From a virus (taxonomy: Duplodnaviria > Caudoviricetes): a stretch of DNA of 55,434 nucleotides. The notes under the pieces were generated by a model. The model saw only the letters and a program-made list of their open reading frames with translations. It made no database searches and had not been told where the DNA came from. Positions 1 through 55,434 of this stretch are shown here, in pieces. A program made the position numbers and the translations under genes. Position 1 is the stretch's first letter; each line of letters begins with the position of its first letter. The stretch lies in the IMG/VR virus record IMGVR_UViG_3300033153_009453, positions 1-55,434 of that record, one strand, 5' to 3'.

Positions 1-114
1 ATAATTGCCTCTATTTCTCAAGCTGTCTGGTCAGCTGTAGCCCCTGCCTCTATTCAGGTTAACTTAGTTTTCTCTGTGTCTGTATATAACCTATTTGTAC
101 TTCAATCTGTATGA
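1..114. repeat. Terminal direct repeat, copy 1 (circular assembly overlap)
   Basis: Bases 1-114 are identical to 55321-55434, and a minus-strand CDS reads in frame across the junction. Confidence 0.97.
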
Positions 115-902
115 TTGTCAACATCTAAAATTTCAGCTATTGTATTTCATCAATCTTGTATTAGTTTACCTGTAGTTAAGTTAAATGTAGCAATATTATC
201 GTCCGTAGCACTTCATGGTCAAACAACATCTCAAGCTCAAGCTCAATCATTTCATTTTACCGCTAAAATTCCCCAATATGTTACATTAGTTGGTACATTT
301 CAAGTACTTTCTAATATACAAATATATGAGCTACCATTATAACTAACTCAATCATTAACTGCGTACGTTGTACCTCCATTATAAGCTTGCTCCCATATTA
401 ATCCAATAGGTCATGGGTCTCAGTCATCTCATTTAGTTCATTCTATCACTCATTCTAAATTCCAAATACTTTCCTTGCTATAAACTTTCCAATTAGTTGT
501 ATTTATATATACGTCTCAATCTTGTCATTCTGTAGTTGGTGTAACTGTTCAGAATAATATATTAGCTCAAAGAGCTATATTGTCGTCTATAAAATCAGCT
601 AACACTTGTATATTAGTTACACTATTATCCAATACACCTCAGAAGTTTGTTGTATCAATAGGTATTATTGCCGCACTATGTGTATGGGAATTACTCGCAT
701 AATCTCAAGGTTTCGCTCAGCTATCAGTTAAATTTCAACTACCATCAAGTCAGGCGAAATTACCTGTAGTAGGTGATGAAACTTTATCAGCTTTATCATC
801 TAACAGGTTTTCTGTTTTTGTGCTACTGTAAACTGTAGTAGTAGAAGGTGAAGCATCATTAATGCTAGCACTACCATACGGTTTTGTATATATTCAGCTC
901 AT
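1..902 (-). CDS. Tail fibre protein, 5' part (continues across the circular junction to 53637; 862 codons in total)
   Basis: ATG at 902. With TGA=Gly it reads KADKVSSPTTGNFAGLDGSGNLTDSG, collagen-like KGDDGDPGPIG, carbohydrate-binding-like YAVNDGVSYNGSSYIC and GDVVGPGSATDDNIATF, all typical fibre motifs. Confidence 0.8.
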
Positions 903-903
903 A

Positions 904-1185
904 TTATTTATTGTTATTTCTTAAATATTCCTCTATTACTCTTTTAGAGAGAGGGTTAATATCAAGTTTTTTAAATTGCATAAGTCAAAATGATTTAAGT
1001 TCCTCTAAAGTTCAAATTCAATTCTCTAATAATACCTTAACTGTAAACTCTCAAACTCATTTTAATTTCAATAAATCAGTTTTAGTAAAACTACTAATCT
1101 TAGATTTAATTTTCTTCTTATTCTTAAAAGCCTCAGCTTCTATAAGCTTAGCTCTGTTTCCTGCAAAAACTTTAGCGTAATTCAT
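904..1185 (-). CDS. Small helix-hairpin-helix domain protein (93 aa)
   Basis: TDLLKLKGVGEFTVKVLLENGIGTLEEL matches the HhH signature when TGA=Gly. Confidence 0.7.
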
Positions 1186-1208
1186 TTAATTTTCTTATCC
1201 AAATAAAG

Positions 1209-1243
1209 AAAAAAGGTAGAACTGTGAGAAGCTCTACCTTTTT
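1209..1243. terminator. Intrinsic terminator downstream of the major capsid gene
   Basis: Hairpin AAAAAAGGTAGA...TCTACCTTTTT with A/T tracts on both sides. Confidence 0.8.
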
Positions 1244-1256
1244 ATTAATAGGGCAA

Positions 1257-2369
1257 TTAAATCGCACTACCTGTTCATGTAGACCCAACTACCATTTCTG
1301 GAAATAGTACTTGTGCTCCAAAGAACTTTTCTACTGTTACGAAAGCAGCTCTTGTTTGATTGTCTTCAAAGAAGCTAATTGCACTTTCACCAAACTTTAA
1401 TCTTCTTAAAGCTTTTCTTGCCTTAGCATGCTCTTTGTTCATTAAGAACCACATTGTAGCAGAACCAACATCTACTGTACTATCATTAATACTTGGTTGG
1501 TTCATAGTTTCTAATACAACTAGTCTAACCTTGAAACCTGCTCTCATGAACACGTTACCATAGTTATCATTAGTTGCAGCTCAACCTGTAAAGGTGTAAG
1601 GGGCAAACCCATTACCATCTGATAATATATCTAATGCTGTTTTCTCCAATTCAGGAGAAATTATTAAATCATATACTCAGTTGGAAGGTCTACTAATTCT
1701 TGTACCTAAACCATCTTTCATTCAAACTCTCAATCTATCAAGTGCCTCTAATAGAGAAGTAAATGATAATGCTGCGTAATTACCGCTTCAATCATCTACT
1801 ATATTAGAATATGCTTCACCTGTGTCTTGAACTATATGATTAGTTGAAAACAATGCTTTAGCATCATATACAGCACTTCATGGTCATTTAGCAGCCGATA
1901 TGTCAAACCCTAGCGTCAAACATTGAGTGTAATACTCATTCTCTTTCATTCTCATTGCGAAGGCTTGGTCTTCAACTCTATTTAAACTCTGTTGTAAATC
2001 TTTTAATAGGTCATCAGGAATAGCTTGTGCCATTGCTGCTCTTTCAATTCTCTTTCTGGTAAGAGAAGAAGCACCTGTACCTGTATATAGTCTTTCAACT
2101 TCATAAGAAATTTCTTGACCATACTTTTGCCCGATAACTTGGAATGTATCCCATTCACCAACTATCCTAGCTCATTCTTGTCCTAATTTTGTTTTAATTA
2201 TTCAATCTTTATCGTAAACTTCAAATTCTGTAAATCAAAGTTTCCCTGCAACATCTTCTTTAACTCTAGGGTCTAAAACCTTTTCGTCAAACATTTCAAT
2301 AACCACAGGTGATATTAATTTATAACTTTCATCATCTGAAAGTATACCAGCTTTTTGTACTACTGTCAT
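1257..2369 (-). CDS. Major capsid protein (Mu gpT-like family, 370 aa)
   Basis: Open only with TGA=Gly. Contains DAKALFSTNH and C-terminal VVGSTGTGSA, typical of gpT-like capsid proteins. Lies after scaffold and decoration genes and before a terminator. Confidence 0.75.
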
Positions 2370-7120: not shown

Positions 7121-7816
7121 TTAATTATTTTCTATTCTATTTTTAGCTATATTGAAATATTTATTATTAAGTTCAATTCAAATAAATTCTCTATTTAAAT
7201 TTTTACATGCTACTCAAGTTGTACCGCTTCCCATAAATGGGTCTAGTACTATTCATCATTCTGGGCAACTATTTCTTATTATCTTCTCAGTAAAATCCAA
7301 TGGTTTAATTGTTGGGTGTCCCCATAATTTTTTATCTTTATGATTTATTAATCATAAGTAAACAGTTTTAGCATCCTCATAACTTTGAGGCTTATTGTAA
7401 GCTCATGGTTTTTTGAAATATAAACAGTATTCATTGTCTGTGAGATACTTATTACAATAACTTGGTATTGCATTTCTCTTATTCCATATCAGTATATCAA
7501 ATAGACATTTTTTTTGTAATACGAAATATTCAAAATACATTGGAATTTGTTTTTTATTACACCAGATATATATATTAATCTTGTCTTGTAGTTGTTCTGC
7601 TTTTCTTATGAACTCTTTAAAATTATATCAATTATCAATTCAAGCCTCATTCACTTGCTTTATTGAATTTTTAAACTTCTTAATTGTGTTTATACTTCCT
7701 CATCCCGAGGTAACGCTCACCTCATAAGGTGGGTCTGTTATAATAGTATCAACCTTTACTCATTGTTCTATTAATTTATCCATTTCCTCAAGACAATCTC
7801 AATTTATTAGTTCCAT
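7121..7816 (-). CDS. DNA methyltransferase, N6-adenine/N4-cytosine, beta class (231 aa)
   Basis: NGDCLEEM, catalytic IITDPPY, HPTIKP, SAM-binding VLDPFMGSGTTGVA and FIGIEL. Confidence 0.93.
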
Positions 7817-7828: not shown

Positions 7829-9304
7829 TTAATATCTAATTGTTTTCTTAACTCTATTCATTCTTTTATATTTTTTCTTTAATTCTTTAGTTTCACTATG
7901 GGGTTTATATCAGAAGATAAAATAACGCAAAGCGTCTAACGCATCATCATTTAATTTTATTACATCCTCACTTCAATTTCATTTATAGGCATGGACTGAA
8001 AGCTCCTTAACTAAGCTCATACATTTCTCAGAGATGTACAGCATCCCATTTTTAAAGAGCTCATTAACTTTAAATATACCTGCTCTTCTATTTGATAGAT
8101 TATTTTCTCATTTGGAAAACTTATCAGCTGGAATAGTATTAAGTCAATAAACTTCTTTCAATTCCATTCTTGCCCTCTTGTCAGCCGTATCAGCAACTAT
8201 ATATTCTAGGTTGATATGGTACTCTATCTCCTTCCCTCTAACCTCATCCCTAAGTTCGCCCAATCCCATATTCTTTTGATAAATCATATCAAAAACATAT
8301 ATATGTCAATCCATATCAACTGCTATAAATAACATCGCCATTGGATGGGAAACTCAAAAGTCTAAGGCTCAGTAGAACTTAGTTCAGTTTCATAACTTTC
8401 TAGGATGGAAGTATTCAATTAAGTTTTTATTTCTTCTAAATTCATTATAAACAAGTCAACTTGGCGGAATAAACATTCAGAACCTTCTTATTTTCTGCTC
8501 TTCTTCACTCAATCATTCTAACCAAGTATGGTCTGCATACTTATTCTCTAAGCTGTCTACTTCTTTGATATATGTTTTAGACTTTACATTCTCGCTTCAT
8601 TGTCAGTAGAAGTAATCATGGACAGCTGGATTAAACTTTGTTGGTGTAAATGAAAGCAACATCTGGGTACGTCTTCATCTTGTTCATCTAAGAAGTTCTA
8701 TAAAAATATCCTCTCTTTCAGGTAACTCATCTAGATGTATAAAATCAGGATTACTTCACTCAAGTCTAGCTTGTCAGGCATCATATGTTCTGAACATTAT
8801 CTTGTTTCAATTCTTTAATGTGATTTCCTTTAATGTTTGTGTACTTCAATCTCTTTTAACTTTAGCTAGTTCATTTTTAGGGAGCTTAATTATATCTCAT
8901 ATTGTGTTGGTTCAAAGAAAATAAGGTTCTAAGTTTGTCTTAATACTATCAGAAGTTTTAGTTACAACTAAGGTTTGTTTACTTTCTCAAATGTAAGGTA
9001 GATTATACTTTTTACATCACTCTTTTCATAGGGCTAGAAGTATATCAATATCACAACTTACAATTGTTTTACCTGAACCATTCCCTCAAATAAACATTAT
9101 ATATTTATATTTAGGTACGGGTCAATTTCTTGCTCCAACAGCATCTATTACTTTCTGTTGATGTTCCTGCGGAATAAAATCAAGAATAGGGTAATGGAGC
9201 TTTCTTTTTTTAAGCTCTTCAATCAATGCTTGTATTCCAAGTCGTTTTTTAATACTTAAAGTATCTAAGTTAACTTTCTCTAAATCTTTTAAACTAAGTT
9301 TCAT
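7829..9304 (-). CDS. terL: Terminase large subunit (491 aa)
   Basis: Walker A IGGNGSGKT, Walker B IHLDE, nuclease ALDFGVSHP and C-terminal NDDALDALRY. Confidence 0.92.
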
Positions 9305-9544: not shown

Positions 9545-9820
9545 GCGAAACGAAGTGAAGCCGCAGCAACACTAACTATAGGCGAATAAACTAATTTCCA
9601 AATAAAGAGAAAGAGTAATACCTTTTTCTTCTTTCTTTGGACGATAGGGATAACTTAGTTTACTAAGTTATTACTATCGTATTACTTTATTCTTTTTAGT
9701 TAAGTTTAAAGTGAGTTATTATTTATATATATTATATTATATTATATTATATTATATATATTACTATACGGCGAATTTGGATTAACTCTTAAAGTTACGG
9801 CGAAACGAAGTGAAGCCGCA
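9545..9820. repeat. 21-bp direct repeats flanking a hairpin and AT-rich tract (candidate origin or packaging region)
   Basis: GCGAAACGAAGTGAAGCCGCA at 9545-9565 and 9800-9820. Inverted repeat ACGATAG..TAACTTAGT TT ACTAAGTTA..CTATCGT at 9641-9680, and an (ATT/TAT)n tract at ~9717-9762. Confidence 0.7.
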
Positions 9821-10002
9821 AAAGTAATACCTTGTAGATATTTATATATTTAACTTTTTTCTTTTACTTGGAAAATTAACTCTAAAGCCCCTTCCCCAAA
9901 AAAAAAGAAACTATAATAAAGTTAGAACTTGATGGGGGATATAGGGGGATATAGTTATATTTTAAATATAGTTATACCTATAAGTTATATAATATTACTA
10001 TT

Positions 10003-10114
10003 GCCATCCCTTTCGGCGATACCTGGAAGAGAGCCATCCCTTTGGGCGGGGCTTATGAGGTTTATACCTTGCTATAGCCATCGCAATTATTAAGGGGGCT
10101 ATTAAAAGCCATCG
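10003..10114. promoter_or_regulatory. GCCATC-containing iteron-like repeats
   Basis: GCCATC at 10003, 10033, 10077 and 10108. The first two extend as GCCATCCCTTT(C/G)GGCG. Confidence 0.5.
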
Positions 10115-10367
10115 TATATACTTAGTATAATTTCTACCCTAGATGAGCAGCCGAATTTCATTTTTTAAATTTTCCTCTGAAAGTGAAGGAAACTAAGACA
10201 ATACGGTACTTACATTCTATGCCCCCTCGGGGGGGGGTGACCAGCCCCATCATCATACGATGACTTGTCAGGTAGTCAAGGTCGCATGGTACTGCCAACA
10301 CTAGCCTATAAAAGCCCTCCTAGACAACAATCTACTCTTTGTCAAGCGTTTGATGATACTGCCAAGC

Positions 10368-10395
10368 TTGACAATCGTATTTTAGGTGGTATAAT
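10368..10395 (+). promoter_or_regulatory. Consensus sigma70-like early promoter
   Basis: TTGACA-16 bp-TATAAT. Confidence 0.7.
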
Positions 10396-10798
10396 GTATA
10401 GAAGATAGAATGGCTTGACATTTCATGAAGTTATGGCTTAACAAAGCTTTAAATCTTGCTCAATTTTAACCGTAATCAATAGCCTGTAAAACAACTAACA
10501 ATAAAACCACCAACCAGACGCTAGTCTTAATATGGCTATTCAAAGCCTCTCCATACCATAATACTACAACCTCCAACCACCTTGCTTATTGATACCAAGT
10601 CTCATTAGTAGTCTCACTAAGCTTTAGAGAGCCAAAACTGTAAGCGTATTACTGTAGTAATACAGTCCCACATTACCCAAATAAAAGAATAATGGTATAT
10701 GTCAAGGCGAACTTGTACAAATAGTTTGCAATTAAGTCAATAAAGAGTATACTTATATTAGTTAAAGGAAAGGAATAATATTTATTAATAATAACATT

Positions 10799-10888
10799 AT
10801 GGGAACAGTAAAGATAGCAATAAGTCAAGCTCAAACTAGCTTAAAAGTAAAGAAAACATTAAATAAATATTATACTCCTAAATTGTAA
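10799..10888 (+). CDS. Small early protein (29 aa)
   Basis: Follows promoter 10726 and the conserved leader. Shares N-terminal MGTVK with the 12011 ORF. Confidence 0.5.
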   Translation: MGTVKIAISQAQTSLKVKKTLNKYYTPKL

Positions 10889-11027
10889 AACTTTACAATA
10901 TATTCGCCGAACTGGTTTAATTACTAGACATGGTTTAACTCGGTTATAATAAAAGAAATATAAAAAGTTTTGCAATTAAAAGAATAAATGATATAATAGA
11001 GTTACTTTAATATTTAATTATAAGATT

Positions 11028-11192
11028 ATGGAAATAATAATAACATTCTGGTCACTAATATTGGGTAATATATTTATATTCTTTATTACTTTTCTTATTA
11101 CTGAAAATGAGGAGAAAATAGCTATAGTAATATTTCCTACATTCTTTATTTCAGTTTTTATATTAACTCTGGTTTGTTTAATTAATAATTAA
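11028..11192 (+). CDS. Small membrane protein with two hydrophobic segments (54 aa)
   Basis: Leader TAATTATAAGATT-ATG and two hydrophobic stretches. Confidence 0.65.
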   Translation: MEIIITFWSLILGNIFIFFITFLITENEEKIAIVIFPTFFISVFILTLVCLINN

Positions 11193-11196
11193 GATT

Positions 11197-11520
11197 ATGA
11201 GTGAGCAAGATTTAGTTTCTTTGATAGAAAGACAAGACAAGGGATGATTTACTTTATCTATCAAAGGTAATATGGATAGGTATATAGTGTGACTAACTCA
11301 TAATAATAATGTTTCGGCGAAAAGATTAAAAGCCCAAATTAAAGAGTACAATATATTAGATAATGTCAACCTTTGAGGTTGGATTGATAATGAAACTAAT
11401 AAGCAATATATAGACATTTCTACCTCATGTAGAAGCCTTGACTTTGCTAAGAAGTTAGGTAAGCTATATAAGCAAATTGCTATATGGGATATGGAAACAA
11501 TGAGTGAAGTGAGGATTTAA
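11197..11520 (+). CDS. Conserved phage hypothetical protein (107 aa)
   Basis: GGFT...GGWID..T...YIDIS...AKKLG...QIAIWD pattern seen in phage early proteins. Requires TGA=Gly. Confidence 0.7.
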
Positions 11521-11537
11521 TAATTAATTATAAGATT

Positions 11538-11912
11538 ATGGCAACTAGTAACATACAACATACAGGACTAGAAGAAAGTATACATTTTATTGAGGATGAA
11601 GAAAATGTAGAATATATACAAGAATGCGTGGATTTTGATAAATATATTGAGGAGGTGAAAGTATATGATAATAATTCTAAAGAATGGGAGGAATTAGATT
11701 TAGAAATTAAAATGAAAGGTTGTTACTATGAATGAGCTAATTTAATTATAGAAAGTTCAGAAGACATTGAAGAAATGGACTTAAGCTTGACAAGCGAAAG
11801 GAAGATTACAAGAGCAATTAAAAGATTAGAAAAAGTAATGAGTACATATTCAATAAAAATTAAATGTGTAGGTAGTTTTAGCAATTGAGAAACAATTTTT
11901 GAAAGATGTTAA
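11538..11912 (+). CDS. Conserved phage hypothetical protein (124 aa)
   Basis: Extends past TGA to give GCYYEGANL...FSNGETIFE. Confidence 0.75.
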
Positions 11913-12010
11913 AAAGAAAATTAAAAAAAGTTTTGCAATTAAAGAAAAAAAGTCTTATACTTAGTAGTAGATAAATAAGGAAAACAATTTTAGTTTAATA
12001 ATTATAAATT

Positions 12011-12268
12011 ATGGGAACAGTAAAAAAACATGAAAGATTTTTTCATACTCCTGAAAAGGATATATTTTCAGTTCACTCTAATGAGTGAGGAGAAACTAAA
12101 GAAATAGGTAAAGCTAAAGAGTTTATACTATACATGAATTTCATGTTAAAATATGATAACCACAAGGAGGTTACTACTATATGGGAAGCCTTAGATAGTT
12201 TTCAAGCATATTATGCTTGACCTGAGGTTTGAGGGTGAATGGAAATATTTATAACTTATTGAAAATAA
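12011..12268 (+). CDS. Hypothetical protein (85 aa)
   Basis: Open with TGA=Gly, after promoter 11933. Confidence 0.7.
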
Positions 12269-13086: not shown

Positions 13087-13174
13087 TAATATTAGTTTGT
13101 AATTATAAGAAAAATCCTTATAATTACTCTTAGTTAAATAAGGAAAACAATTTTAATTTAATAATTATAAGATT

Positions 13175-13336: not shown

Positions 13337-13354
13337 TTATTAATAATATAGATT

Positions 13355-41917: not shown

Positions 41918-41933
41918 AAAAAAGAATACAAAT

Positions 41934-44900: not shown

Positions 44901-46109
44901 TGGTAGTTTAGCTCAAGAGAATTTAGCAAACTTCTCAACTCATTCAAAAGTTAGCTTCTTAAATTCCTCGGAAAACATTTGAACTCATTTTTGAACTTCT
45001 TTATTTCTAAATAAAGCTTTTATTCATCACTTACCTAAATCATAAGCCTTCTTTCAAGCTTTATAACCTCACTTTACAGCCTTAGGTGAGAGTTTAATTC
45101 ATAGACTTGTTAGAAACATTAAAGCTCACTCAGTAGCCTGTGGGTCATCTTCCCATAACCATTTTCAAGTCAAACCGTAGTAAGGTCAAGCTACTGCTGC
45201 AACTCATACCCCTAGTTTAGCCATATTAGTTAAGCTAGGGTTTATTGTATTCTCTAAGGCTATCATTGTTTTCCCTACAGCTGTTTTAGGTCAAGCTTTT
45301 AAGGCTAGCTGCCCTAATCATTTAGATATTCATCACATTGTAAGCAGGTTTGCCACAACATCATAAACTATAGTGTATGGTTCAAGCTTTTCTAAATCAT
45401 TCCTTAGTTCTCAGTCCGATTTTTCTACTATCTTTCTTCTTTTTTCTTGTGCTGTGTCCATATTTAGGTAATCATTCATACTTAAATTGGTTCAAAATAG
45501 ATATTCAATTCTATCTTGAAAAGCTTCTGTGTCTTTTCACGCCTTCATCCAATCAAAGTCTCTAAACTCTACCATTGATTTATACATTTCCTTTGTATTG
45601 AAATATCAAGCAGCTCATATAGTATATAATGAACCAAAAGGCTTACTAATAGCAGTATCTACGGGTTTATCCATTACTTGAGCAACTCACTTTAATACCT
45701 TTCATGTTCATTCCTTAATTTGTTCTTCAAAAAGCTTTGTTACACTGTCTTTAACTGTAAAATCTTCTGAGGACTTTAGCTTTCATCATACTTCCGTAAA
45801 GCCTATATCTTCATCCGTTATTTCTTTATTTGGAAGAGTACTACCTCTTCAATATGTAGCGTAAGTCTCAGATGCCGGAGTATTTTCTACTGGTTTATTT
45901 ATTATTAGGTTTTTGTATGTTTCTGGTTTATTTTCTTTATAGGGAGCAGAACTTAGCCCGCTCTCCTTTCTCATTATAGTAGCTGTTTCATATAAGTCTT
46001 CCTCATCATCTTCCTCATACATTGTAGAAAAGCCCTCAGTCTTATATCTCCAAGCTTTCTCTTCCTCATCCTTTGTAGGGGGAACATATTTCCCAAAGTA
46101 ATCTGCCAT
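41970..46109 (-). CDS. Large internal virion/DNA-ejection protein, C-terminus LPD38-like (1379 aa)
   Basis: Three ORF-track fragments join through TGA. Largely helical, with FIPYLN, PPWLKQVLEVTSNKDFFRDKDLV and SPIKLEKFF; last gene of the podovirus structural operon. Confidence 0.65.
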
Positions 46110-46126
46110 TTGTTTTTAAATTAAAA

Positions 46127-48532
46127 TTATAAAGCATCTAAAGCACTGTAATCTCCCTCTTCTTCCTCTTCTTCTTTTTCAGCCTTCTTAGCTCTTTCAG
46201 CTATCTCGTCTCCTATTATAGCTTTTATAGTTTCAACCCCAGCCTTCTTGTCAGGGTATTTTTTGAAATATCTAAAATATTCTTCTCTTACGTTTGATGG
46301 ATTTATTTTGTCCATCACTTTTGATAATTCTTTAGTACCTTCTATGTCCTTCTCTTCTCTTGCTTTCTCTTTATTCTTTTTATCTGCAAACTCTTTTACA
46401 TTTTTAGTTGGACGCTCCCCTTTAAGGACACTATCCAACATACTTAATAATTGACTACTTGATGTTAAAGCTCTATTTCAAGCAACTCATTTATAAGTAC
46501 TTTCATTACCTGCATCTTTTGGTAGACTTGCCCATATTCCGCTTATTCTCTTTTGGAATTGTTGAGGTGTAATCTTTCAGCTCTTAAAGTCATTAAAGCT
46601 TGAACCCATTAGCTTCATCGCCATTTTATCTTGTAATTCAGGTGTAAACTTTTCATTTCAAGTTAATCCCATATCTCTAATTAAGCCTCTTAATGTTCAA
46701 CTAACTATTTGATATTTCCCCATTGCTCATCCTATATAATTCTCTCCATCAGATGATAAGTAAAGTCTACTTTGTTGAAACTTTTGTAGTTCCTTTAGGG
46801 TCATATTAGTAATCTTTGTTTTAGTTTGACTTCAAGCTCAAAATAGAGCTTCATAGTTTCAATTGGTTCATTCAGCACTTGAAATAAAATCTAGTAACTC
46901 ACTAGTTCAACCACTTCATGCAGTATAATCTTGGTTTTCAACATCAAACTGTCTTGCTTCTTCTCTAGCCTTAGCTTGGTCAAGTGCATATTCTGCTCCG
47001 AATTTAGCTTTGTCAAATGCAAACTTCCTTTCCTCTAAGGAAACAGCACTTTGTCTTGCTTTGTATTCAGGTGTTTCACTTAGGACTTGCTTTGTAGCAA
47101 TAGCTGTAGCCTCTTCTAGAGTGCTTCAACCTTCCATTAATCTGTGGACATTACCGTTTATTTCTGCTCTAGTCTCTTCCGATGTAATATAACCTTCCCC
47201 CATCATTTTAGATACATTAGCTGAAACGGATTTCGCTATTGAACTTTTCTTAATTGAAGTTAAATCAATTAAGTTTAATCAAGCCTTTCTTGCTAAAGTA
47301 TCTAATTCAACATCATTCATTTCAAATAATGCTCAGCTAGTTATTTTATCATTTATATTCTCTTTTGCTAAACCTTGGTCTTTTTCAATTTGGTTTTGTA
47401 TGTCTATTTGATATTTATATCATCTATCTTGAATTTTAATCATATCATCTATATGTTGGCGTTCTAAGTCTCCAACTTCACTTCTATAATCCTTTAATAT
47501 CCCATCTATTGCTTCCTCCTTCTCTTGAGTACTTAATAGTAAACTCTTAGTAGTATCTTGTATTCTTTTTTCTGCTTGTTCATCTAAATCATCTAACTTA
47601 TCAGAGTAAGTATTTATTGTTTGATTGATTAATCAAGAATATTGCAGATTAGCTTTCTCTAATTCTATACCTACCTTAGATATTTCCACTCATGTAAAAG
47701 CTTCATTATAACTCATCTTAGCTTTTATTTGAGCTATAGCAGCTATTCAGTCAGTTGCTATTTGTTGAGATTGGTTTATAATTCAAGAACTAAAACCTAA
47801 TCATAACTTTTGATAAGCCCAAGCTGATTGTTGTCTTTCTATTTCTATTGCAGCCTCTGCTTCTATAATTGAGTTCTCATTTTGTATTCTCTGGTACTCT
47901 TGTGAGGCTTCTAATTTCTCTCTATCAGCCTCAGCTAACCTCATTGATAAGTCTTTCTCTTTCTGTAATCTTTCAACCTCTCAAGCTTTTTCATCTTCTA
48001 ATCTAACCCTCCTTTCATCTTCTAATAAAGATAGTTTTTCATCTTGTTTCGTTAATAAATCTTGTAATTCTTTTGCATGGGTCTCTGTTCTTTCTATATC
48101 AGTTTCTTTAGCTGTTTCCAAATCAGATATTTTAGTTTCTTTTAATTCTTCCAACTTCTGTCAAGCTGCTGTATTTTGTGCTAATATTTGTTCCGCCGTT
48201 CATTTAACGTCTCAAGGTTCAATTGTAGGAGTTGAAGGTGCATCAACTGTTCCCGTAGGCGTTGTAGTGTCTTCTCCAACTAAAGAAGAAGGAGTAACGG
48301 GGGTATCGGCGACCTTTAATCATGTTCAAGTTGCTGCTATTTCCGCTGCATCATTCCTACTTCCAGCTGTTTCTTTTATATCTGGGGTTAATTTAAATCA
48401 TTTTCCTACTACCTTACGGGTACGTTGAACTGGTTTTACTGTCGCTGGTTTTGGCGGTAATACTTTATTTGTATCTTTCCCAGCTCACGGAATAGTTGCA
48501 GTTACTTTCTTTTTTCCTCTTACTACTACCAT
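46127..48532 (-). CDS. Internal virion/ejection protein with lambda-R-like lysozyme domain (801 aa)
   Basis: Long coiled-coil, then LLDFISSAEGT...AMGKYQIVSGTL...FTPELQDKMA...IWASLP (muramidase/transglycosylase motifs) at ~46500-46900. Confidence 0.75.
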
Positions 48533-48546
48533 ATTTTATTTATTTA

Positions 48547-50364
48547 TTAATAATAATTTGATTGTGAAACTCTTAAAGGTTTAATTCTAAAGTTTACACT
48601 TGAAACCTCCACATATCAATCTCATTCATGGGTAAGTCTGAACTGAAATATTCTTGCATCATCAAATAAGTCAATCTTTTCTCTAAATCTATTGGTAACT
48701 CAAGTTGCCGCAGAAATTATTCTTTTAGTTGGGTTAGCTCCTGTTCAAATCTCTAAAGCTACTCAGTCTGCTAGTATTTCAATTTCTAGATTTTTAGTAC
48801 CTCAAATTCAAGTTATATCTCATATAACTTCTACTTCTTTTCCCCTAACATAATCTACTTCATCTATAAAGGCGTACTCCTTACTTGTTCTAGTTCAGTC
48901 TGTAGTCCATCAATCATTATCTTCATATAGTTTTCAGTTAGTTCACTCTATAGAAAAGTAGCATCATTTAGCTACTCATACATTCTTAGTTGTTTCTTTT
49001 ATCCAACTTTTCTCATCAACATTATAACAATATATAATATCGTTAATTGTCGGTGTTCATCATTCCTCTACTGTTGTAAACCTTAGGTTAGGATAACAGT
49101 AGTAAAGCCTTTGCTGTATTCAATCTATATCGCTGTCTTGGTTGTTAAACCATTCATCTACTTCATCACTCACTGCGGTGTCTCTAAGGGTTGTTAAGTT
49201 CTGCTCATAACTTAATCTCCTAACCTTTTCAGTAATTCAATCATAGTAAAATATATCTTGTTCTACTTTTACTATACAAGCCTTGTCTTTAGCTCAATTA
49301 TTTGTAATTTTATTTACATTGAAATTAAAACTTGTTCAAGTATCAGTTTCACTATTTGAATACCATATTTCATCTTCTTTGAATATATACAATCAATTCT
49401 CTCATACTATTAATCAAGCAATATTACCATCTCATCATACCCTTTGGGCTCATGCTGAATAGGCTGTAAAATCCATTACTAGATGGGGCTCTGATGGAGT
49501 TGATGTTTTAGAAAAGTATAATACATTACTGTCTTCTAAAAAGTACACAAACTTACCATTATAATACACTCAACCTTTAGCTTTTATTAAATCTGAACCA
49601 TTGTACATATTAACTCAAAATAGACTATCTCAGCCTCATATATTTTGATAATATTGAGTATTTCATCCATCTGTAATTAAAATTAAATCATCTCAACTTT
49701 TAATTATTTCAGGGTTAGTAACATCTCAACTAAATTGTCAAAGTCCCACGTCTCAAGTATTAGCTCAAGTATCTGATACATCAATTCTTCAAGCATTTTG
49801 CTTAGCCCAAATAAATAATCAATCTAATTGTGTTAATCAAGGTGTATGGTAATAACTTCATACTTCACTATCAATATTTGTATCAATAATATCAGTTACC
49901 AAAGCTTCATATACATCATCCTTAGTATCTCAAGCTTGAACTGTATAACTCGAAGCTATAGGTCAATAACTAAAGTCTACTCATGTTACCGTAATTTCAT
50001 ATACCTGTCAAGCACTTATACTTCATGGGATATTCCAAAACCAAGAATGTATATTATTATCATTATTAAGCCAAATATTATTAACTCACTTTGTAATCTC
50101 TAAAAAGCTACCATAATGTGTCATATATACATTTTGGTCTATTATGTCAACACTTCTAATTTCATGGTTACCTATTTTATTTATTTGGTTCAGCTCATAT
50201 TCTTTATAGCCTTGACTATTTATAAGCTTATTTCAAAAAAAGTTCCAATTCTCTTGAGCTAAAGCTTGTATATCTTCTATTTCACTTGGATAATCTCTAA
50301 GGTTAACACCTCATGTTAAGTCTTTAAGTCTAAAGTCCTGAAATCAATGGGTATATCAAGTCAT
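48547..50364 (-). CDS. Tail nozzle/stabilisation protein (P22 gp10 / T7 gp12-like; 605 aa)
   Basis: N-terminal DLTGGVNLRD, beta-rich, with LYFSKTS and LYIFKE. Lies between the adaptor and ejection genes. Confidence 0.65.
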
Positions 50365-50377
50365 ATTTCTTTGTTAA

Positions 50378-51451
50378 TTATAAATCATCATAAAATCATT
50401 CTGGTATAATTTCTATTGTTCTATATTCTAATCCTCTATCAAAGGTAGAAGCAAATCAAATTTTACTTTTCGTTTTCCTAGTTCACTTAGCTTTATAAGC
50501 TTTATATTTCCTGTACTCTTTTTCAAAAGCATTCTCGTAGTATTGCCATCTATCGTCTTCTCTAGAAGCTAATAATCTATATACTACATCATATACAGGT
50601 ACTCTCTTATATCTGTAAGGAAGGTTTAGTATATCTTCATCTTTAGTCATTATAGCGTAATCAGGAACATACTTTACGACTAATGTATATTCAGTTGAAC
50701 TATATGGAAGATAAAGGTACTCATTTCCTTGGTAGTCTTTTATAATTGTAAATCTATCTATAGTATCCATATAAAAATCTCTACTGTCAATATGTTCTAA
50801 TTTATATCAATCCACATATACTTCACTTACTCTTTCTACTCAATATGGTATTCTATGTCAAACAATCATTCTGTCAAAATCATCTATCAAATCATTTCCC
50901 GCTACTTCAAATTTAATTCAGTCATAATCATAATAATTATAATAAATTCATTTTCAAACTAGAAAGCTTCACATTATAGCTAATGGATAACTTTCAGCTG
51001 TAGTGATACTTACTGTATTCTGGTCTTTCTCAACCGTTAGTCAGTTTAATCATTTTAATGAGTAATGCTGTATGTTACCTCTTTCAGGTACTCAATCTAA
51101 CATTGTTCAAATTGTCTGATTTAACTCTCTTCTTATTTTAGGTTTAGGATAAATAGTAGATGAGGAAGTTCTTCAAATCTCTTCCCAAACTTCATCTATT
51201 AAATCTCACAATGTAACTTCGCCGTTACCTAAAATATCCCTTTCTTCCCTAGTAAAAGAAGAAATAGTAATTGAAGTTACTGGGGCGACTGTTACGGTTA
51301 CTGTATCATGGATGAACGTATAAGCTGTTCATATATCACTTCAATCAACAATTATATTACTTATATAACCTATATACTCTTCTAGAACATATTCTTTATT
51401 TGCTCCATCTATATCTCAAGTTGGAACTTCATTCTCTATTAGTTTTAACAT
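50378..51451 (-). CDS. Head-to-tail adaptor-like protein (357 aa)
   Basis: TLGDLIDEVWEEIG N-terminal helix and LNLPYRYKRVPVY; lies just before the nozzle gene. Confidence 0.55.
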
Positions 51452-51470
51452 ATTTGTACTTTATTTGGTA

Positions 51471-51554
51471 TTTAAATCATTTCTTAGAGCTTCTAGGAGG
51501 TTTTAGGACACATTGTACCTAATCATTCTAAAAGCCCCTTAGAAAGCATTTAAA
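51471..51554 (+). repeat. Dispersed imperfect palindromic element, copy 3
   Basis: TTTAAATCATTTCT ... TGTACCTAA ... CCTTAGAAAGCATTTAAA, with the same 40-bp AAATC-to-core spacing. Confidence 0.55.
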
Positions 51555-52130
51555 TTATCTTTTATTTTCTATTACTTCTCTAGCTCTCGCTATTTCAATT
51601 AACTCTTTAGTTTCTTGTTCTGTAAGAGGATTATTTCCTTCGTGAGAATTAAATATTGGCTCAATTCAAGCTTGTTTTAAAGCTCTCTCCATTATTCAAG
51701 AATATTTACTTTGTTCCCCTTGTTTAGTCTTTGCTTTGTCTGTAGTTCCTTCTTCTTTATAAGGTATTCAGTTATCTTGAAAGTGTGGTAAATCCTTTCA
51801 CCGTAAATCAAAACCCCAAACAATTCAATATTTGGCTGCTATATTAGCTATTTTAGTCCACTCTTTTATATTACTTGGATATAGTTCCTTTCACCTAAAG
51901 GCTATATCGATTGCCTTTCTTGTCTTATGGTAAGAGTTTAATGTCCAAGTAACCTTATTTCACTTCCTAGTTCTTCATTGTCCATATAAATATATTTGCC
52001 TTTCTTGGCTTCTATATGTTTCAGTAATGAATACTTCCTTTCAGGCTTCCTTAATAAATAACTCTACTTTCCTTTTAAAAGAGGGTGTAAGCTCATTAAT
52101 ATCTCGGCAAGGTGTTTTTATGTTAGTCAT
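51555..52130 (-). CDS. Endolysin, peptidase M15 (L-Ala-D-Glu endopeptidase-like; 191 aa)
   Basis: CRDINEL, ITETYRSQERQ..LY.QGRT, SYH...AIDI and GIVWGFDLxGKDLPHFQ. Confidence 0.9.
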
Positions 52131-52135
52131 AATGT

Positions 52136-52312
52136 TTATGTTAGCTTTTTAAAATAATCAACTTTAGGAAGGATTATTCCAGAAGGCTTATCTTTTCTAA
52201 TCCTTTTCCTTTTAAGCTTTCTTTTAGGCTTTGTAATTCTAACTTTTACCTTTACTTTCCTTTTACCTTTTTTAGGTTTAACTTTTATAGTTGTTTTCTT
52301 TACGTAAGCCAT
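52136..52312 (-). CDS. Very basic small protein (58 aa, about 26 K/R)
   Basis: MAYVRKTTIKVKPKKGKRKVKVKVRITKPKRKLKRKRIRK... Confidence 0.6.
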   Translation of the reverse strand: MAYVKKTTIKVKPKKGKRKVKVKVRITKPKRKLKRKRIRKDKPSGIILPKVDYFKKLT

Positions 52313-52315
52313 TTA

Positions 52316-52450
52316 CTATTTATTATATTGTAATATCGGTCATTCTGCTATTAAAGCAGTTTTTATTTCTTCCAGTTGAAAGCTTTGATATACTTCCACT
52401 CATAGTATTAATAGAATTATTACAATTAATAAATAAATACTATTTTTCAT
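52316..52450 (-). CDS. Small single-TM protein in the lysis cassette (44 aa)
   Basis: TAATG coupling to the holin and a hydrophobic N-terminus. Confidence 0.55.
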
Positions 52451-52758
52451 TATTTCTTTAATCATAGTTTCTCTTTTATTATATTAATTCAATCTTTTTC
52501 TATATAATCTAGAATAGGAGCAGTTAGGAAACCTATAACTCATATCAAAGCATATTTACTATCTCCCATAGTTGCTGGAATTGCCCATCAGGCTATTACT
52601 CCTAACCATCAAGCTAAGAAGGCATTCAAGAGAAACATTCATCTCTTAAAGATTACTTTTTTTTTCCTTACTTGGTTTAGATACATAACAATACCTCATG
52701 TTCAACTTACACTTGCGAAGATTAATACTTGTTTCCACATAGCTAATTTTTCTTCCAT
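52450..52758 (-). CDS. Holin (LydA-like, three hydrophobic segments; 102 aa)
   Basis: Gly-rich TM helices and a basic C-terminus, adjacent to the endolysin. Confidence 0.65.
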
Positions 52759-52765
52759 TTTGTTT

Positions 52766-52963
52766 TTATTTGTTGTAATTTGTTAAATACCTTCTAAGTC
52801 CATCTATTGATGTACCAGCTATTAACCCATATATTATTTTCATATCAAAGTTTCCACTTTGAATTTGTTCTAGGAATATTAGAATAACAGGTGTATAGAT
52901 TATAAGTATTTGCCTTACTATTCTTTTTAAATCCTCTTTCTTTAATTCGTATTTGTTACTCAT
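52766..52963 (-). CDS. Second holin-like membrane protein (65 aa)
   Basis: Two hydrophobic segments, within the lysis cassette. Confidence 0.55.
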   Translation of the reverse strand: MSNKYELKKEDLKRIVRQILIIYTPVILIFLEQIQSGNFDMKIIYGLIAGTSIDGLRRYLTNYNK

Positions 52964-52969
52964 TTTATT

Positions 52970-53635
52970 TTAATTATAAGATAATCAGCTTCATCAATTA
53001 TATAAGCTTGTAATTTCTGCTTGTGTTAAAGTTTTACTCCAATATCATGTTTCATCAATTTTTCAATCAAATCATCTATTAATATATGTTTGTCATATTT
53101 GCAAAGAAGTTGTTGTTGTACAACTCCCACTAGCAGCCTGTGTTCATCTTAATACTCAATTTAAGTATATTCTTATGTTACTACCATCATATGTTGCTAT
53201 TACATTATACCATGTACCAGTAGTTATAGCTACAGAGCTTGTTATTCATGCAGCAACTCAATATAGATAGATATTAGGATAATCTGATGTACTTAATTGA
53301 AAATGAAACCCCGCACCGGTTGTTGTTGTGCTTCATATTATTCATCTATAATTTCATAGTGCATCTAAATAAATCCAAGAACTAATTGAAAATGTTGTTC
53401 AAGGAGTTATATTCGAAAGCCCAACATAATCAGTTGTTCAGTTATAACTATATGCTCAGTCTACCTTTCAGCTTGAGGTATATGAAGCTCAACTTATTGT
53501 TCATGTATTACTTCAATGTGCATCTGGAAAACTACCATTAGTATCAGCTCTCCAATAACTAACTAGTCATGTGGTTAAGGTTGGATGACTACTTATCGTG
53601 CCAAGGTTAAATATATATGGGTTTATTATAAACAT
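52970..53635 (-). CDS. LamG/concanavalin A-like domain tail protein (221 aa)
   Basis: GLVSYW, FSISSWI, WYNVIATYDG and FDGKIDETGYWSKTLTQAEITSLYNGG. Confidence 0.85.
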
Positions 53636-53636
53636 T

Positions 53637-55434
53637 TTATTGGTGTCAAATTATATAAACTTTCAATCATGTCTCGTCTGCGTCTCATGTTACCGCATCA
53701 ATATCAATTGTTATTTCAGCATCATCTGCTAAAGCACTATCATCTATTACGGCAGGAGTTGCGGCTGTTGTACTTGTTAACTCTGTATTATCAATTGTTA
53801 GCTTAGTTGAAAGTATTGTTGTTCAACTCTCATTAATATCAATTGTTGTAGTTCAGCTTGTTCATCAAGCTCATGTAAGTGAAGCTCTAACATCTGTTAC
53901 CGTGAAAGCGTAAGGCATTCTAAATGTTAACTTCTCTGTTCAGGTTGTTAATGCTGTAGTCTCATCTGAGGCTGCAAGAGCTATAACTTCTGTATATCAA
54001 TCACAATTACTTAAATCTCAACTTGCAGGCACTCCTAATGCTGGAGTTACTAATGTTGGAGATGTAGCAAATACTAACTCTCAACTTCATGTCTCATTAC
54101 TTATCACACTTGCTAATTCTGCGGAGGTGGTAGCTGCAAATTGGTCTAATGGGTCTCATACTACTGCCATATTACCTAAATCTACATTACTATCAGGCAT
54201 TGTAATTGTTCTTGTTGTAGCTGTTGTTATTCAACTAGCATCTAGTGCTATTTTCTTTGTTGTATCAGCTGTATTTTCAACCCTGAATGTACTATCAAGA
54301 AATGTTGAAGAAGCTGATGTAGAACTACCTGCTGCTGTATTAGGTAAGGTTCACCTCAAATCATCTCAAGCTCAATCATAAGCTGTAAAGTTACCTCAAC
54401 TTAATCTTCATATCATTCTATATATTAATATAGAAGTTCATTTAAAATCTTCATCAATTGAAAAGTCTGCATACTTACTACTATCTTGTCTAGCATCCGC
54501 TTCTGAGGAATAACTTCAAGAAGGCTTACTAATATATAATTTACTGTCAGATGTTAAATTACTATAAGTGTAATAGAAAACATATGGAACATATTTATTA
54601 TTAATACTTCAACCTGTACTATCTGTTGTAATACTCGCCATATTAGTTATAGCTGTGTATGGTGTTGTTTCATCATTTTTTATGTAAAATGTAGCTGGAC
54701 TTGTAATTGCTGGAGTTGCATGCTTGTGCATTTGAAACATCACTCAACTTGAAACCGCCACATTTACAGTTGCTCCTCAACTTCAACTATAACTAAGTGC
54801 ATTTCAACTTTGCCAAGTTGCATGTTGATTTCTAATCCATTCATTAAGATGTGTCATATGTCAGTTATCTCCTGATGTGAAAACATGGTCTGCCCATTCA
54901 TGGGTTTTATATGTTCAGCTTGCCGCTACAAATGTAGCACTTCAAACAAAGGTAACTAATACTGGCACATATTCAACAGATGGAAAACTTGTAGTAGAAG
55001 TAGTTAATAAATTTGTACTCTTAAGTATATAAACATAGTTTATTTGTGGGACTGTATCTGTTCCAGCTGTTAGATTAACACTTGCTGGACTTGGAGTACA
55101 GTCTAATGTTTGTATTCAGCTTGATGTTGAATACCTTACATCTCATGTTCAAGTCTTTTCTAATGTAGCTGAAATTGTACCTCAATCAGATGTTACGTCT
55201 ACTGAGCCCTCATCAATCATAGCTCAATTGAAAAAGTCCATTAACTCTCAATTATTTGAGAAGTAGGTGTCAATTTCATCATGGGTTGTAGTTCAAATGT
55301 CTGCTATATTAGTATGACTTATAATTGCCTCTATTTCTCAAGCTGTCTGGTCAGCTGTAGCCCCTGCCTCTATTCAGGTTAACTTAGTTTTCTCTGTGTC
55401 TGTATATAACCTATTTGTACTTCAATCTGTATGA
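53637..55434 (-). CDS. Tail fibre protein, 3' part (joined to 902..1 across the junction)
   Basis: DTTKKIALDASGITTATTRTITMPD and C-terminal DDAEITIDIDAVTG...GLKVYIIG; in frame with the ATG at 902. Confidence 0.8.
55321..55434. repeat. Terminal direct repeat, copy 2
   Basis: Identical to 1-114. Confidence 0.97.

Follow-up and report, generated by a model that had tools for sequence, protein, structure and literature searches.

Genetic code 25, in which TGA is read as glycine, has been known since 2013, and phages that use it have been published. Liu, Jaffe, Chen, Bor and Banfield (mBio 2023; PMC10746230) report about 50 phage scaffolds of Absconditabacteria, mostly in code 25, and 57 of Gracilibacteria. 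A complete code-25 phage of 39,071 bp, RSA-ATP1, associated with Absconditicoccaceae, followed in mBio in 2026 (PMC13059738). The remark in the first-pass annotation of the DNA analysed here that complete phages of these lineages are scarce is therefore dated, and the present genome adds to those already described.

Like the phages of Liu et al. (PMC10746230), this one is of metagenomic (IMG/VR-type) origin, has dense in-frame TGA codons, TAA or TAG stops and hardly any genes in code 11, and appears to share the code of its host and not to override it. In contrast to those phages, which were linked to hosts by CRISPR spacers, no spacer link was found in the genomes searched here. The genome also resembles RSA-ATP1 as described in the available text (PMC13059738): both are complete circular Caudoviricetes assemblies readable only in code 25, both code for a tRNA-Met(CAT), and the host of RSA-ATP1 was likewise deduced largely from the code. 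However, RSA-ATP1 has its own tRNA-Gly-sup(TCA), whereas the phage described here has none and instead harbours a sealed Gly-type tRNA-like gene. Eleven RSA-ATP1 proteins have Patescibacteriota matches, and related prophages exist; no relative of the present phage was detected among the searched genomes of the host lineage. Internal UGA codons occur in 39 of the 65 RSA-ATP1 ORFs and, here, in 71 of 81 genes over 55.3 kb, and auxiliary genes (NrdDG, Rnl/Pnkp and an ArgRS-like protein) further distinguish this phage from RSA-ATP1.

The code 4 and code 15 phages of standard-code hosts (Borges et al., bioRxiv 10.1101/2021.08.26.457843) similarly let a stop codon serve as sense over large parts of their genomes, and there, as here, the recoded codon is most frequent in late structural genes. 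In the accounts available (also PMC10746230), they encode suppressor tRNAs and sometimes release factors or aminoacyl-tRNA synthetases, and their early genes are readable by the host. In contrast, TGA stands for Gly in the present genome, the suppressor is absent and the early genes are recoded. The genome provides a complete, gene-rich reference for a clade, recoded throughout, that comprises at least about 20 clusters of capsid genes and forms part of a still small set of code-25 phages, and it shows that such a phage can manage without a suppressor tRNA of its own.

Genome layout and reading frames

The window, i.e. the whole stretch of DNA that was analysed, is the entire record of 55,434 nt, with 30.4% G+C. 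Its first and last 114 nt match exactly, leaving 55,320 bp of unique sequence. As this repeat falls within the tail-fibre gene, it indicates a circular or permuted assembly without a physical end. Two minus-strand ORFs (3-902 and 53637-55433) run open at the window ends and belong to one frame, as worked out by hand from their coordinates. The main features are as follows.

1..114, no strand: terminal direct repeat, copy 1 (exact 114-nt match to 55321-55434)
1257..2369, minus: major capsid protein, Mu gpT-like; 20 relatives with 47-92% identity, several with PF25209 or PF10124
5346..7115, minus: putative portal protein, 589 aa, 34 TGA, proposed from its size and position adjoining TerL
7121..7816, minus: N6/N4 DNA methyltransferase, 11 TGA (PF01555, E 1.4e-32; PDB 5hfj, E 3.8e-30)
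7829..9304, minus: terminase large subunit (TerL), 28 TGA, one of them in Walker A (PF03237, PF17289)
9573..11027, no strand: divergent control region between the late (minus) and early (plus) arms, with sigma-70-type promoter-like sites
11028..19274, plus: early block, 20 small ORFs of no assigned function, 16 of them with TGA; phrog_37559 is the sole family match
16259..16343, plus: Gly-type tRNA-like gene (Rfam tRNA, 57.8 bits; 20 nt replace the 7-nt loop)
23592..25516, plus: RNA ligase (23592-24650; PF09414, E 6e-21) and polynucleotide kinase-phosphatase (24638-25516; PF25109, E 9e-46; PF13671)
27017..28690, plus: primase-helicase (Toprim and DnaB-like), 25 TGA (PF03796, PF13155; phrog_239, E 3.7e-36)
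31376..31877, plus: tRNA-Thr(TGT), 31376-31449, and tRNA-Met(CAT), 31807-31877 (ARAGORN, Rfam)
34625..35761, plus: ArgRS-like protein, 378 aa, 17 TGA (PF00750, E 1.4e-6)
38626..41065, plus: anaerobic ribonucleotide reductase; NrdG activase 38626-39090 and NrdD 39281-41065, 19 TGA (PF13597, E 8.5e-100; PF04055, PF13353; PDB 4coi, E 2e-62)
41930..41975, no strand: hairpin terminator at the convergence of the arms
41970..53635, minus: tail and lysis arm, with a 1,379-aa LPD38-domain protein, an 801-aa protein with a lysozyme-like domain, 605-aa and 357-aa tail proteins, M15 endolysin (51555-52130), holin (52450-52758) and LamG-fold protein (52970-53635) (PF18857, PF13539, PF16083, PF13385; phrog_90, phrog_6523, phrog_785)
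53637..55320, minus: tail-fibre gene, 3' part; the 5' part lies at 1-902 across the contig junction (about 861 aa in total)
55321..55434, no strand: terminal direct repeat, copy 2 (exact 114-nt end match)

The genome is organized in two arms. The plus-strand early and replication arm spans 11.0-41.9 kb, and the minus-strand arm, with the packaging, head, tail and lysis genes, extends from 9.6 kb via the contig junction to 42.0 kb. The two diverge at a promoter-rich region, with 16 promoter-like sites vs 9.7 +/- 3.1 in shuffles and a perfect TTGACA-16-TATAAT at 10368-10395 (plus strand), and converge at the hairpin terminator (one terminator-like site vs 0.1 expected). The median same-strand intergenic gap is 12 nt, and roughly every second ORF lacks a function assignment from Pfam or PHROGs. 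At the edge of the control region, positions 10964-11030 are 85% identical over 67 nt to one genome of the candidate host class.

Several assignments rest on additional comparisons. The tail-fibre piece at 3-902 matches phrog_5073 (tail fibre) and CBM_5_12. The putative portal protein has no Pfam or PHROG match, and its gene occupies the syntenic position of the ORF that follows TerL in three IMG/VR relatives (L001-L003). The methyltransferase gene is inserted between the TerL and portal genes, at a position that is empty in these relatives. A phrog_548 match was obtained for the RNA ligase/kinase-phosphatase locus, a pair of the tRNA-repair type. The ArgRS-like protein retains the HIGH (HAxH) and KMSS motifs and belongs to a family of ~390-aa proteins with ~50% identity, whose profile matches yeast ArgRS (1bs2, E 1.2e-6).

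The comparison of coding density across genetic codes, proposed as a check in the first-pass annotation, yielded long ORFs only with TGA as a sense codon. In code 11, stop-to-stop ORFs of 100 aa or more number 22 (2,724 aa in total, longest 203); with TGA as sense, there are 86 (19,115 aa, longest 1,381), and with TAG as sense 38 (4,616 aa). Greedy selection yielded 89 ORFs, which together take up 89.5% of the DNA. All of them end in TAA (80) or TAG (9) and none in TGA, as first annotated, and 636 of their 16,521 codons are in-frame TGA. These are evenly spread along gene length (53-78 per length decile), with no accumulation ahead of stops. TGA makes up 4.1% of the codons overall and 54% of those for Gly. 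The 71 genes that contain it represent all four modules, and the remaining 10 code for 48-88 aa. The seven motifs noted earlier each have TGA (x) exactly where it had been placed: TerL FIxGNGSGKT, methyltransferase LINxDCL and GTTxVA, RNA ligase KIDxCN, PNKP PCSxKS, phosphoesterase IIxDLHxL and ArgRS-like LHAxHL.

With the 114-nt end repeat, TerL, the Mu gpT-like capsid protein, the tail fibre, endolysin and holin, and a portal protein recognized by position only, the window corresponds to a whole Caudoviricetes genome, which bears out the earlier claim of completeness. We consider it highly probable that it represents a complete, tailed, apparently virulent phage in code 25 that depends on a code-25 host. 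It is unlikely to be a temperate or plasmid-like element. Prophages are common in these bacteria (15 and 12 are given in the available text of PMC10746230), and the unannotated half of the ORFs could hide a lysogeny gene. However, the proteins searched (69 in Pfam, 63 in PHROGs) gave no match to any family of integrases, excisionases, recombinases, repressors or partition proteins, in line with the lytic lifestyle first proposed, a search of 401 genomes of the candidate host class turned up no related prophage, and the circular map is devoid of a visible attachment-site-like tRNA fragment.

Candidate hosts

No tRNA with a TCA anticodon was detected by ARAGORN, including at an 80% threshold, or by Rfam, as the first-pass annotation had also reported. 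As no suppressor tRNA is present and genes of the early, replication and late groups alike contain TGA, a code-25 host is the only economical reading. We likewise take the phage to follow the code of its host, as first proposed, with recoding probably not used for lysis timing. From the very start of infection, translation would need a cell with tRNA-Gly(UCA) and without RF2. To our knowledge, the Absconditabacterales (SR1) and the BD1-5 Gracilibacteria are the only such cells, and no further code-25 lineage is established; we thus infer that the host belongs to one of these two groups. The available text of Liu et al. (2023; PMC10746230) names only these two lineages as code-25.

Composition agrees with such a host. 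The G+C content is 0.30 in the phage vs 0.30 and 0.27 in loci of the two candidate orders, and the TGA share of Gly codons is 0.54 vs 0.43 and 0.53. Shine-Dalgarno-like sites are at background level in the candidate orders (7.5% and 5.4%), and the phage, with one in 81 genes, does not exceed background either. Few such sites are also compatible with a Bacteroidota host. Promoters of Bacteroidota would contrast with sigma-70-type sites, and the sigma-70-type promoter-like sites of the phage may count against a host of that phylum.

The proposal of a Gracilibacteria/Absconditabacteria host is thus supported by code and composition, but not by any spacer, prophage or shared-gene link. The CRISPR sample covered 345 genomes representing the two orders (one per species, many incomplete), with 74 Cas1-bearing genomes and 63 arrays adjoining Cas1, 34 of them in one order (33 of 141 genomes) and 29 in the other (41 of 204 genomes). 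The spacer match to Gracilibacteria/SR1 genomes suggested in the first-pass annotation was not obtained: in the 63 arrays, which cover all but 8 of the 48 Cas1 places of the second order, the best matches reached 16-17 nt, no more than the reversed-sequence control gave. Searching the 401 class genomes with a TerL profile gave only five weak partial matches, all of them free of internal stops, and a peptide-pattern scan based on the TerL alignment found none in 185,579 species genomes. When 66 phage proteins were compared by tblastn with host-lineage DNA (1.07 Mb), the only matches were NrdD (24-29% identity), TerL (23-28%) and a methyltransferase motif.

The phage NrdD is 61-65% identical to proteins of standard-code Flavobacteriia and similar bacteria and only 26-32% identical to those of Absconditabacterales, with no match at E<=1e-20 in the other order. 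It belongs to one recoded clade among standard-code sequences. It exemplifies the acquisition by code-25 phages of genes nearest to those of standard-code bacteria, with rewriting of their Gly codons.

There is a small chance that the code-25 host lies outside the sampled Absconditabacterales and BD1-5, in another Patescibacteriota group or an unrecognized code-25 clade. The 345 representative genomes share no spacer, close structural gene or auxiliary gene with the phage, whose auxiliary genes are nearest to those of standard-code bacteria. Nevertheless, the search took a single, often incomplete genome per species, G+C content, TGA share and Shine-Dalgarno scarcity suit the two orders well, and we know of no other established code-25 lineage.

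Less probable still is a standard-code host, e.g. a relative of Flavobacteriia, on which the phage would itself impose UGA as Gly in the manner of recoded gut phages. The similarity of its NrdD to those of Flavobacteriia and the Gly-type tRNA-like gene in the early arm would fit this. However, the tRNA-like gene has neither UCA nor an open anticodon loop, no tca candidate appears at the 80% ARAGORN threshold, and the Pfam search of the phage proteins matched no release-factor family or GlyRS gene. In addition, TGA occurs in 16 of the 20 early ORFs and in 36 of the 40 replication/metabolism genes, so that nothing could be made before suppression was set up, and the promoter-like sites are of the sigma-70 type.

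Glycine at TGA positions and codon usage across modules

The alignments agree with the earlier assignment of TGA to Gly positions. Of the 19 TGA columns of NrdD (119 homologues), 18 have a Gly majority, with 1,914 Gly and 89 Trp in the 2,261 pooled cells; the Trp cells trace to W-rich, mistranslated recoded relatives. In the ArgRS-like protein, 10 of the 17 TGA columns have a Gly majority, including four of invariant Gly, and none has a Trp majority. Alignment of TGA columns to Trp had been named beforehand as the observation that would speak against Gly; columns with a Trp majority amount to 0 of 36. When late genes were compared with those of three relatives, GGN stood opposite TGA at 107 of 187 non-gap codons and TGG at none, and in the methyltransferase, TGA lies opposite Gly of PDB 5hfj in GTTxVA and FIxIE. 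TGA and GGN together make up 7.5% of codons, and TGG 0.5-1.4%.

Reading TGA as Trp (code 4), as a public protein collection does for this window (W at 19 of 19 NrdD and 17 of 17 ArgRS-like TGA positions), has next to no probability, since it is refuted by the alignment columns (28 with a Gly majority, 0 with Trp), finds no TGA-to-TGG exchange in 187 codon comparisons and would imply ~5% Trp across the proteome. In practice, the proteins of this genome contain about 650 erroneous residues in that collection.

The first-pass annotation had called the recoding uniform. This is correct insofar as early, replication and late genes all contain TGA, but its share of Gly codons climbs from 0.39 in the early module to 0.47 in replication, 0.58 in head and 0.65 in tail/lysis genes (chi-square 42.4, 3 d.f., p = 3e-9). 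The capsid gene, with 10 TGA and 23 GGN codons, has the smallest TGA share of the large late genes. All three IMG/VR relatives, 13 of 13 metagenome relatives and a further relative, L185, likewise need TGA as sense. The entire clade has probably inherited the code, and the use of TGA would be adjusted as for any other codon, with TGA avoided in a highly expressed capsid gene and abundant in tail genes; recoding would then not serve as a lysis timer.

tRNA genes and a Gly-type tRNA-like gene

The tRNA-Thr and tRNA-Met genes sit in a 1.2-kb stretch without convincing ORFs, and the intervening spacer shows no better folding than shuffled sequences (z -1.63). The tRNA-Thr is only 73-88% identical to tRNAs of the host orders.

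A third tRNA-type gene, an aberrant one of Gly type, had been missed in the first-pass annotation. Its anticodon arm forms a closed hairpin of 12 bp capped by a UUG triloop, devoid of the 7-nt anticodon loop and of UCA, and its fold has a z-score of -4.46. The D-arm/T-loop pattern corresponds to the tRNA-Gly pattern in 54 of the 60 IMG/VR loci scanned. We tentatively propose, as a conjecture with a small chance of being correct, that it is a functioning non-decoding mimic (a decoy or sponge) or else the remnant of a UGA-reading tRNA-Gly(UCA). A mimic might bait a host factor directed at tRNA-Gly, either to attack or to measure it, e.g. an anticodon nuclease or GlyRS, and might work jointly with the repair pair formed by the phage RNA ligase and kinase-phosphatase. 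Alternatively, the gene could be the leftover of a tRNA-Gly(UCA) of the kind that RSA-ATP1 retains. Either possibility, if true, would show how code-25 phages gain or lose control of the reassigned codon.

Coding yield and the reading of TGA as glycine

We compared the coding yield of the genome under several codes from the number and total length of the stop-to-stop ORFs with 100 aa or more. The standard code (code 11) gave 22 ORFs that total 2,724 aa, the longest of 203 aa. Reading TGA as a sense codon gave 86 ORFs that total 19,115 aa, the longest of 1,381 aa, which bears out the proposal of the first-pass annotation that TGA is a sense codon; treating TAG as sense brought little gain (38 ORFs, 4,616 aa). 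Codon counts were made on a greedy, non-overlapping set of 89 ORFs that covers 89.5% of the DNA and contains 636 in-frame TGA codons among 16,521. As had been stated, all genes in this set end in TAA (80) or TAG (9). The in-frame TGA codons are evenly spread along the genes (53-78 per gene-length decile), so they do not represent leaky stops towards the ends of genes. The genes are densely packed, with a median gap of 12 nt between those on the same strand.

TGA encodes glycine. Two proteins were each aligned with 119 homologues, and TGA was translated as X in the queries to keep the alignments free of bias:

39281-41065, plus strand: NrdD
34625-35761, plus strand: ArgRS-like protein of 378 aa in which the HIGH and KMSS-type motifs are kept

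In the NrdD alignment, Gly is the majority residue in 18 of the 19 TGA columns and Ala in the remaining one; the pooled 2,261 cells contain 1,914 Gly and 89 Trp. The source of the Trp cells is eight W-rich relatives, plus a single cell in a ninth, and these W-rich relatives are recoded genes themselves, rendered with code 4 (TGA as Trp) by the protein collection. The ArgRS-like protein has 17 TGA columns, ten of them with a Gly majority, including four that are invariant across all 119 homologues. Trp is the majority residue in no TGA column of either protein. In solved structures, Gly lies opposite TGA in the GTT-G-VA and FI-G-IE motifs of the methyltransferase, as well as at many NrdD positions. 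The late genes have no standard-code homologues that are near enough, and therefore five of them were aligned codon by codon with those of three IMG/VR relatives, whose TerL proteins are 72-90% identical. Opposite TGA, 107 of 187 non-gap codons are GGN and none is TGG. If TGA is Gly, the proteome comprises 7.5% Gly and has a Trp content of about 1%, which would rise to about 5% if TGA were Trp. Code 4 is ruled out by the Gly-majority columns and by the lack of TGG in the codon alignments. In all seven motifs quoted in the first-pass annotation, TGA is placed as stated; its observation of a TGA = Gly genome is confirmed, and its interpretation was right in the main line.

The public protein collection renders this genome with TGA as Trp (entries P0001 and P0126). 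Its entries have W at 19 of 19 NrdD and 17 of 17 ArgRS-like TGA positions, and an excess of W is also found in the entries of recoded relatives. Code-25 phage proteins are systematically mistranslated in this collection.

We next consider the distribution of TGA among the genes, whose recoding had been described as uniform. This holds insofar as TGA is present in all four modules, in 71 of their 81 genes, the ten genes without it coding for 48-88 aa. The share of TGA among Gly codons is graded, however: 0.39 in the early, 0.47 in the replication/metabolism, 0.58 in the head/packaging and 0.65 in the tail/lysis module (chi-square 42.4, p = 3e-9). Differences also exist inside the late arm: TGA and GGN codons number 10 and 23 in the capsid gene, 50 and 14 in one tail gene. 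Such graded use resembles a tuning of codon usage, in which the reassigned codon is avoided by the gene with the highest expression. It does not resemble a switch, since TGA decoding is also needed to read the early and replication genes.

Genome ends and gene map

The window of 55,434 nt comprises the complete record of this genome. The G+C content is 30.4%, and the first 114 nt are identical to the last 114. One tail-fibre gene is in two pieces, each open at the window end:

3-902, minus strand: tail-fibre gene, piece at the left end
53637-55433, minus strand: tail-fibre gene, piece at the right end

The two pieces share one frame, as worked out by hand from their coordinates. The gene thus exits one end and re-enters at the other, and therefore the 114-nt repeat is where an assembly that is circular or permuted overlaps itself, which leaves 55,320 bp of unique sequence.

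Annotation with Pfam and PHROGs revealed a two-arm layout, with a minus-strand late arm that begins immediately upstream of TerL, at a promoter-like site, and passes through the contig junction, and a plus-strand early/replication arm. The order of genes is as follows:

Late arm, minus strand, first: TerL, DNA methyltransferase, putative portal
Late arm, then: small head genes, Mu gpT-like capsid protein
Late arm, then: tail fibre, LamG-fold protein, holin, M15 endolysin
Late arm, last: two tail proteins, 801-aa protein with a lysozyme-like domain, 1,379-aa protein with an LPD38 domain
Early arm, plus strand, from 11,028: 20 small ORFs without assigned function
Early arm, next: GGACT/GATase cluster, RNA ligase, polynucleotide kinase-phosphatase
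Early arm, next: primase-helicase, guanylate-kinase-like protein, two tRNA genes, metallophosphoesterase
Early arm, last: PD-(D/E)XK exonuclease, ArgRS-like protein, RusA, NrdG/NrdD

Between the diverging arms lies a region of 1.4 kb that has promoter-like sites of the sigma-70 type, including a perfect TTGACA-16-TATAAT; where the arms converge, there is a strong hairpin terminator. Two sequences were considered as repeated motifs: TTTTGCAA-N14-19-TATAAT has a single occurrence, and AGTTTTGCAA is not more frequent than expected by chance. The early promoter-like stretch at 10964-11030 (plus strand) consists of TTTTGCAA-N16-TATAAT and its flanks. In a search restricted to the class of the candidate hosts, this stretch has 78-85% identity over 48-76 nt with several genomes.

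Neither Pfam nor PHROGs, which left about half of the ORFs unannotated, gave a match to an integrase, repressor, partition gene, release factor or DNA polymerase. The only replication genes found are those of the primase-helicase, the exonuclease and RusA. As no DNA polymerase gene was detected, replication may use the host polymerase or an unrecognised enzyme.

Several other loci deserve mention. The DNA methyltransferase gene (7121-7816, minus strand) lies between TerL and portal only in this genome; as those two genes are adjacent in all three IMG/VR relatives (L001, L002 and L003), it looks recently inserted. The RNA ligase gene adjoins that of the polynucleotide kinase-phosphatase (23592-25516, plus strand). 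In T4, such a pair mends tRNAs cut by host anticodon nucleases, and by analogy its presence hints at a tRNA-targeting defence in the host. The region 19828-23605 (plus strand) codes for a GGACT-type gamma-glutamyl cyclotransferase, a protein with a class-II glutamine amidotransferase domain and unannotated proteins of 282 and 458 aa; this cluster may serve to modify small molecules or peptides. Adjacent to the capsid gene, 2397-3722 (minus strand) codes for a 441-aa protein with a very high content of Thr, Ala and Val and an internal duplication of ~200 residues. Its gene has the lowest TGA share among the late genes (8 TGA versus 29 GGN), and the protein may be a capsid decoration protein.

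Origins of NrdD and the ArgRS-like protein

The phage NrdD has 61-65% identity with proteins of standard-code bacteria (Flavobacteriia and others, with Capnocytophaga and Chryseobacterium among them). In contrast, its identity is 26-32% in one of the candidate host orders, and the other has no match at E<=1e-20, which rules out NrdD as a host-derived gene. In an unrooted tree built with FastTree from the 120 best matches, nine recoded NrdDs, i.e. that of this phage and the metagenomic proteins P0002-P0008 and P0014, form one group (SH-like support 99) placed among standard-code sequences. This unrooted tree suggests a single capture from standard-code bacteria, after which Gly codons would have been rewritten to TGA.

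The ArgRS-like protein is about two thirds the length of an ArgRS. Its family comprises ~390-aa proteins of ~50% identity encoded on long bacterial contigs; only a few members are named, and these come from Ignavibacteria MAGs. The single sequence gave no match against the PDB; a profile of the family matches yeast ArgRS.

tRNA genes and the host

ARAGORN and Rfam detected three tRNA genes, those for Thr(TGT) and Met(CAT) plus an aberrant one. As announced in the first-pass annotation, there is no tRNA with a tca anticodon; ARAGORN returned no such candidate at a relaxed 80% threshold, and those below it are all inside ORFs. The TGA decoder is not phage-encoded. The tRNA-Thr and tRNA-Met genes are in a 1.2-kb region without convincing ORFs (31256-32451). 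The 354 nt between them have a higher G+C content than the surroundings, no significant fold (z -1.63) and no Rfam match. The aberrant gene is:

16259-16343, plus strand: Gly-type tRNA-like gene, tRNA score 57.8 bits

The acceptor, D and T arms are normal, and 20 nt take the place of the 7-nt anticodon loop. The predicted fold is a cloverleaf (z = -4.46), with the anticodon arm closed into a 12-bp helix that ends in a UUG triloop. The D-arm and T-loop belong to the tRNA-Gly type: their pattern matches 66 loci in IMG/VR, each as long as a normal tRNA, and the 60 loci scanned correspond to tRNA-Gly (TCC or GCC; 54), Thr (3), Val (1) or undetected (2). As it stands, the predicted product cannot read a codon. 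A stricter pattern found no copies elsewhere in IMG/VR, the fragments of the relatives contain no tRNA, and a comparison with five genomes gave only arm matches of 23-26 nt.

From its first gene onwards, the phage requires UGA to be decoded as Gly, with no means of its own for doing so, and therefore the host must already use code 25. By inference from the code, the host would belong to the Absconditabacterales (SR1) or the BD1-5 Gracilibacteria. Phages of these lineages have been described: Liu et al. 2023 matched Absconditabacteria and Gracilibacteria spacers to IMG/VR and GVD, and report 50 and 57 phage scaffolds, respectively (PMC10746230). All but 6 of the Absconditabacteria phage scaffolds and 4 of 38 large Gracilibacteria ones are described as clearly code-25, and 26 of 547 scaffolds as circular (PMC10746230). 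RSA-ATP1 (mBio 2026) is a complete code-25 phage of 39,071 bp, whose host was assigned to Absconditicoccaceae largely from genes readable only under code 25 (PMC13059738). It is reported to have a tRNA-Gly-sup(TCA) (PMC13059738), unlike the present genome, which is larger and has no such tRNA. The claim that complete phages of these lineages are scarce is out of date in view of these publications (PMC10746230, PMC13059738), and the present genome is a further code-25 phage of a kind already known.

The genome style does fit the candidate host orders. The G+C contents of loci from the two orders are 0.30 and 0.27 (phage, 0.30), the TGA shares of Gly codons 0.43 and 0.53 (phage, 0.54), and Shine-Dalgarno-like sequences in these loci are not above background. 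In the phage, a Shine-Dalgarno-like core lies within 20 nt upstream of the start in a single gene out of 81, versus 9.6% at random positions.

Of the host assignment in the first-pass annotation, the dependence on code 25 stands; the searches for a direct link by CRISPR, TerL, NrdD and tblastn were all negative. Candidate-host genomes were reached through a motif search, and Cas1 was found in 33 of 141 genomes of one order and 41 of 204 of the other. The 40 + 40 Cas1 neighbourhoods examined contain 34 + 29 CRISPR arrays, as detected with our own k-mer script. The best spacer match to the phage in these arrays (blastn-short) is 16-17 nt, and reversed-sequence controls were as good or better (up to 40.1 bits), so the CRISPR link was dropped. 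When positions 1-20000 were compared by blastn with five and then with 401 genomes, all matches were AT-rich, promoter-like or to methyltransferase sequences; the larger search scored only two candidates per genome, which makes it weak as a test for spacers. A 40-nt match of 95% (L087) was rejected as a spacer, since it sits in an AT-rich intergenic stretch and not in an array. TerL peptide patterns had no match in the species genomes, and a TerL profile gave only five weak, partial, stop-free matches in 401 genomes of the class. Nothing further emerged when 66 phage proteins were compared by tblastn with 1.07 Mb of DNA from the host lineages. The comparison of tRNAs with those of the host orders, proposed earlier, was uninformative and gave no link (73-88% identity for tRNA-Thr, no match for tRNA-Met).

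Sampled words of the genome were found at small shares (0.06-0.12) in 11 sequence runs, ten of salt lake metagenome and one of sediment, from which we make no claim on habitat; no RNA runs are listed among them. Finally, all the relatives fetched are recoded, namely the three IMG/VR contigs, 13 of 13 metagenome contigs (with capsid identity down to 29%) and the further relative L185. The code is therefore a trait of the clade.
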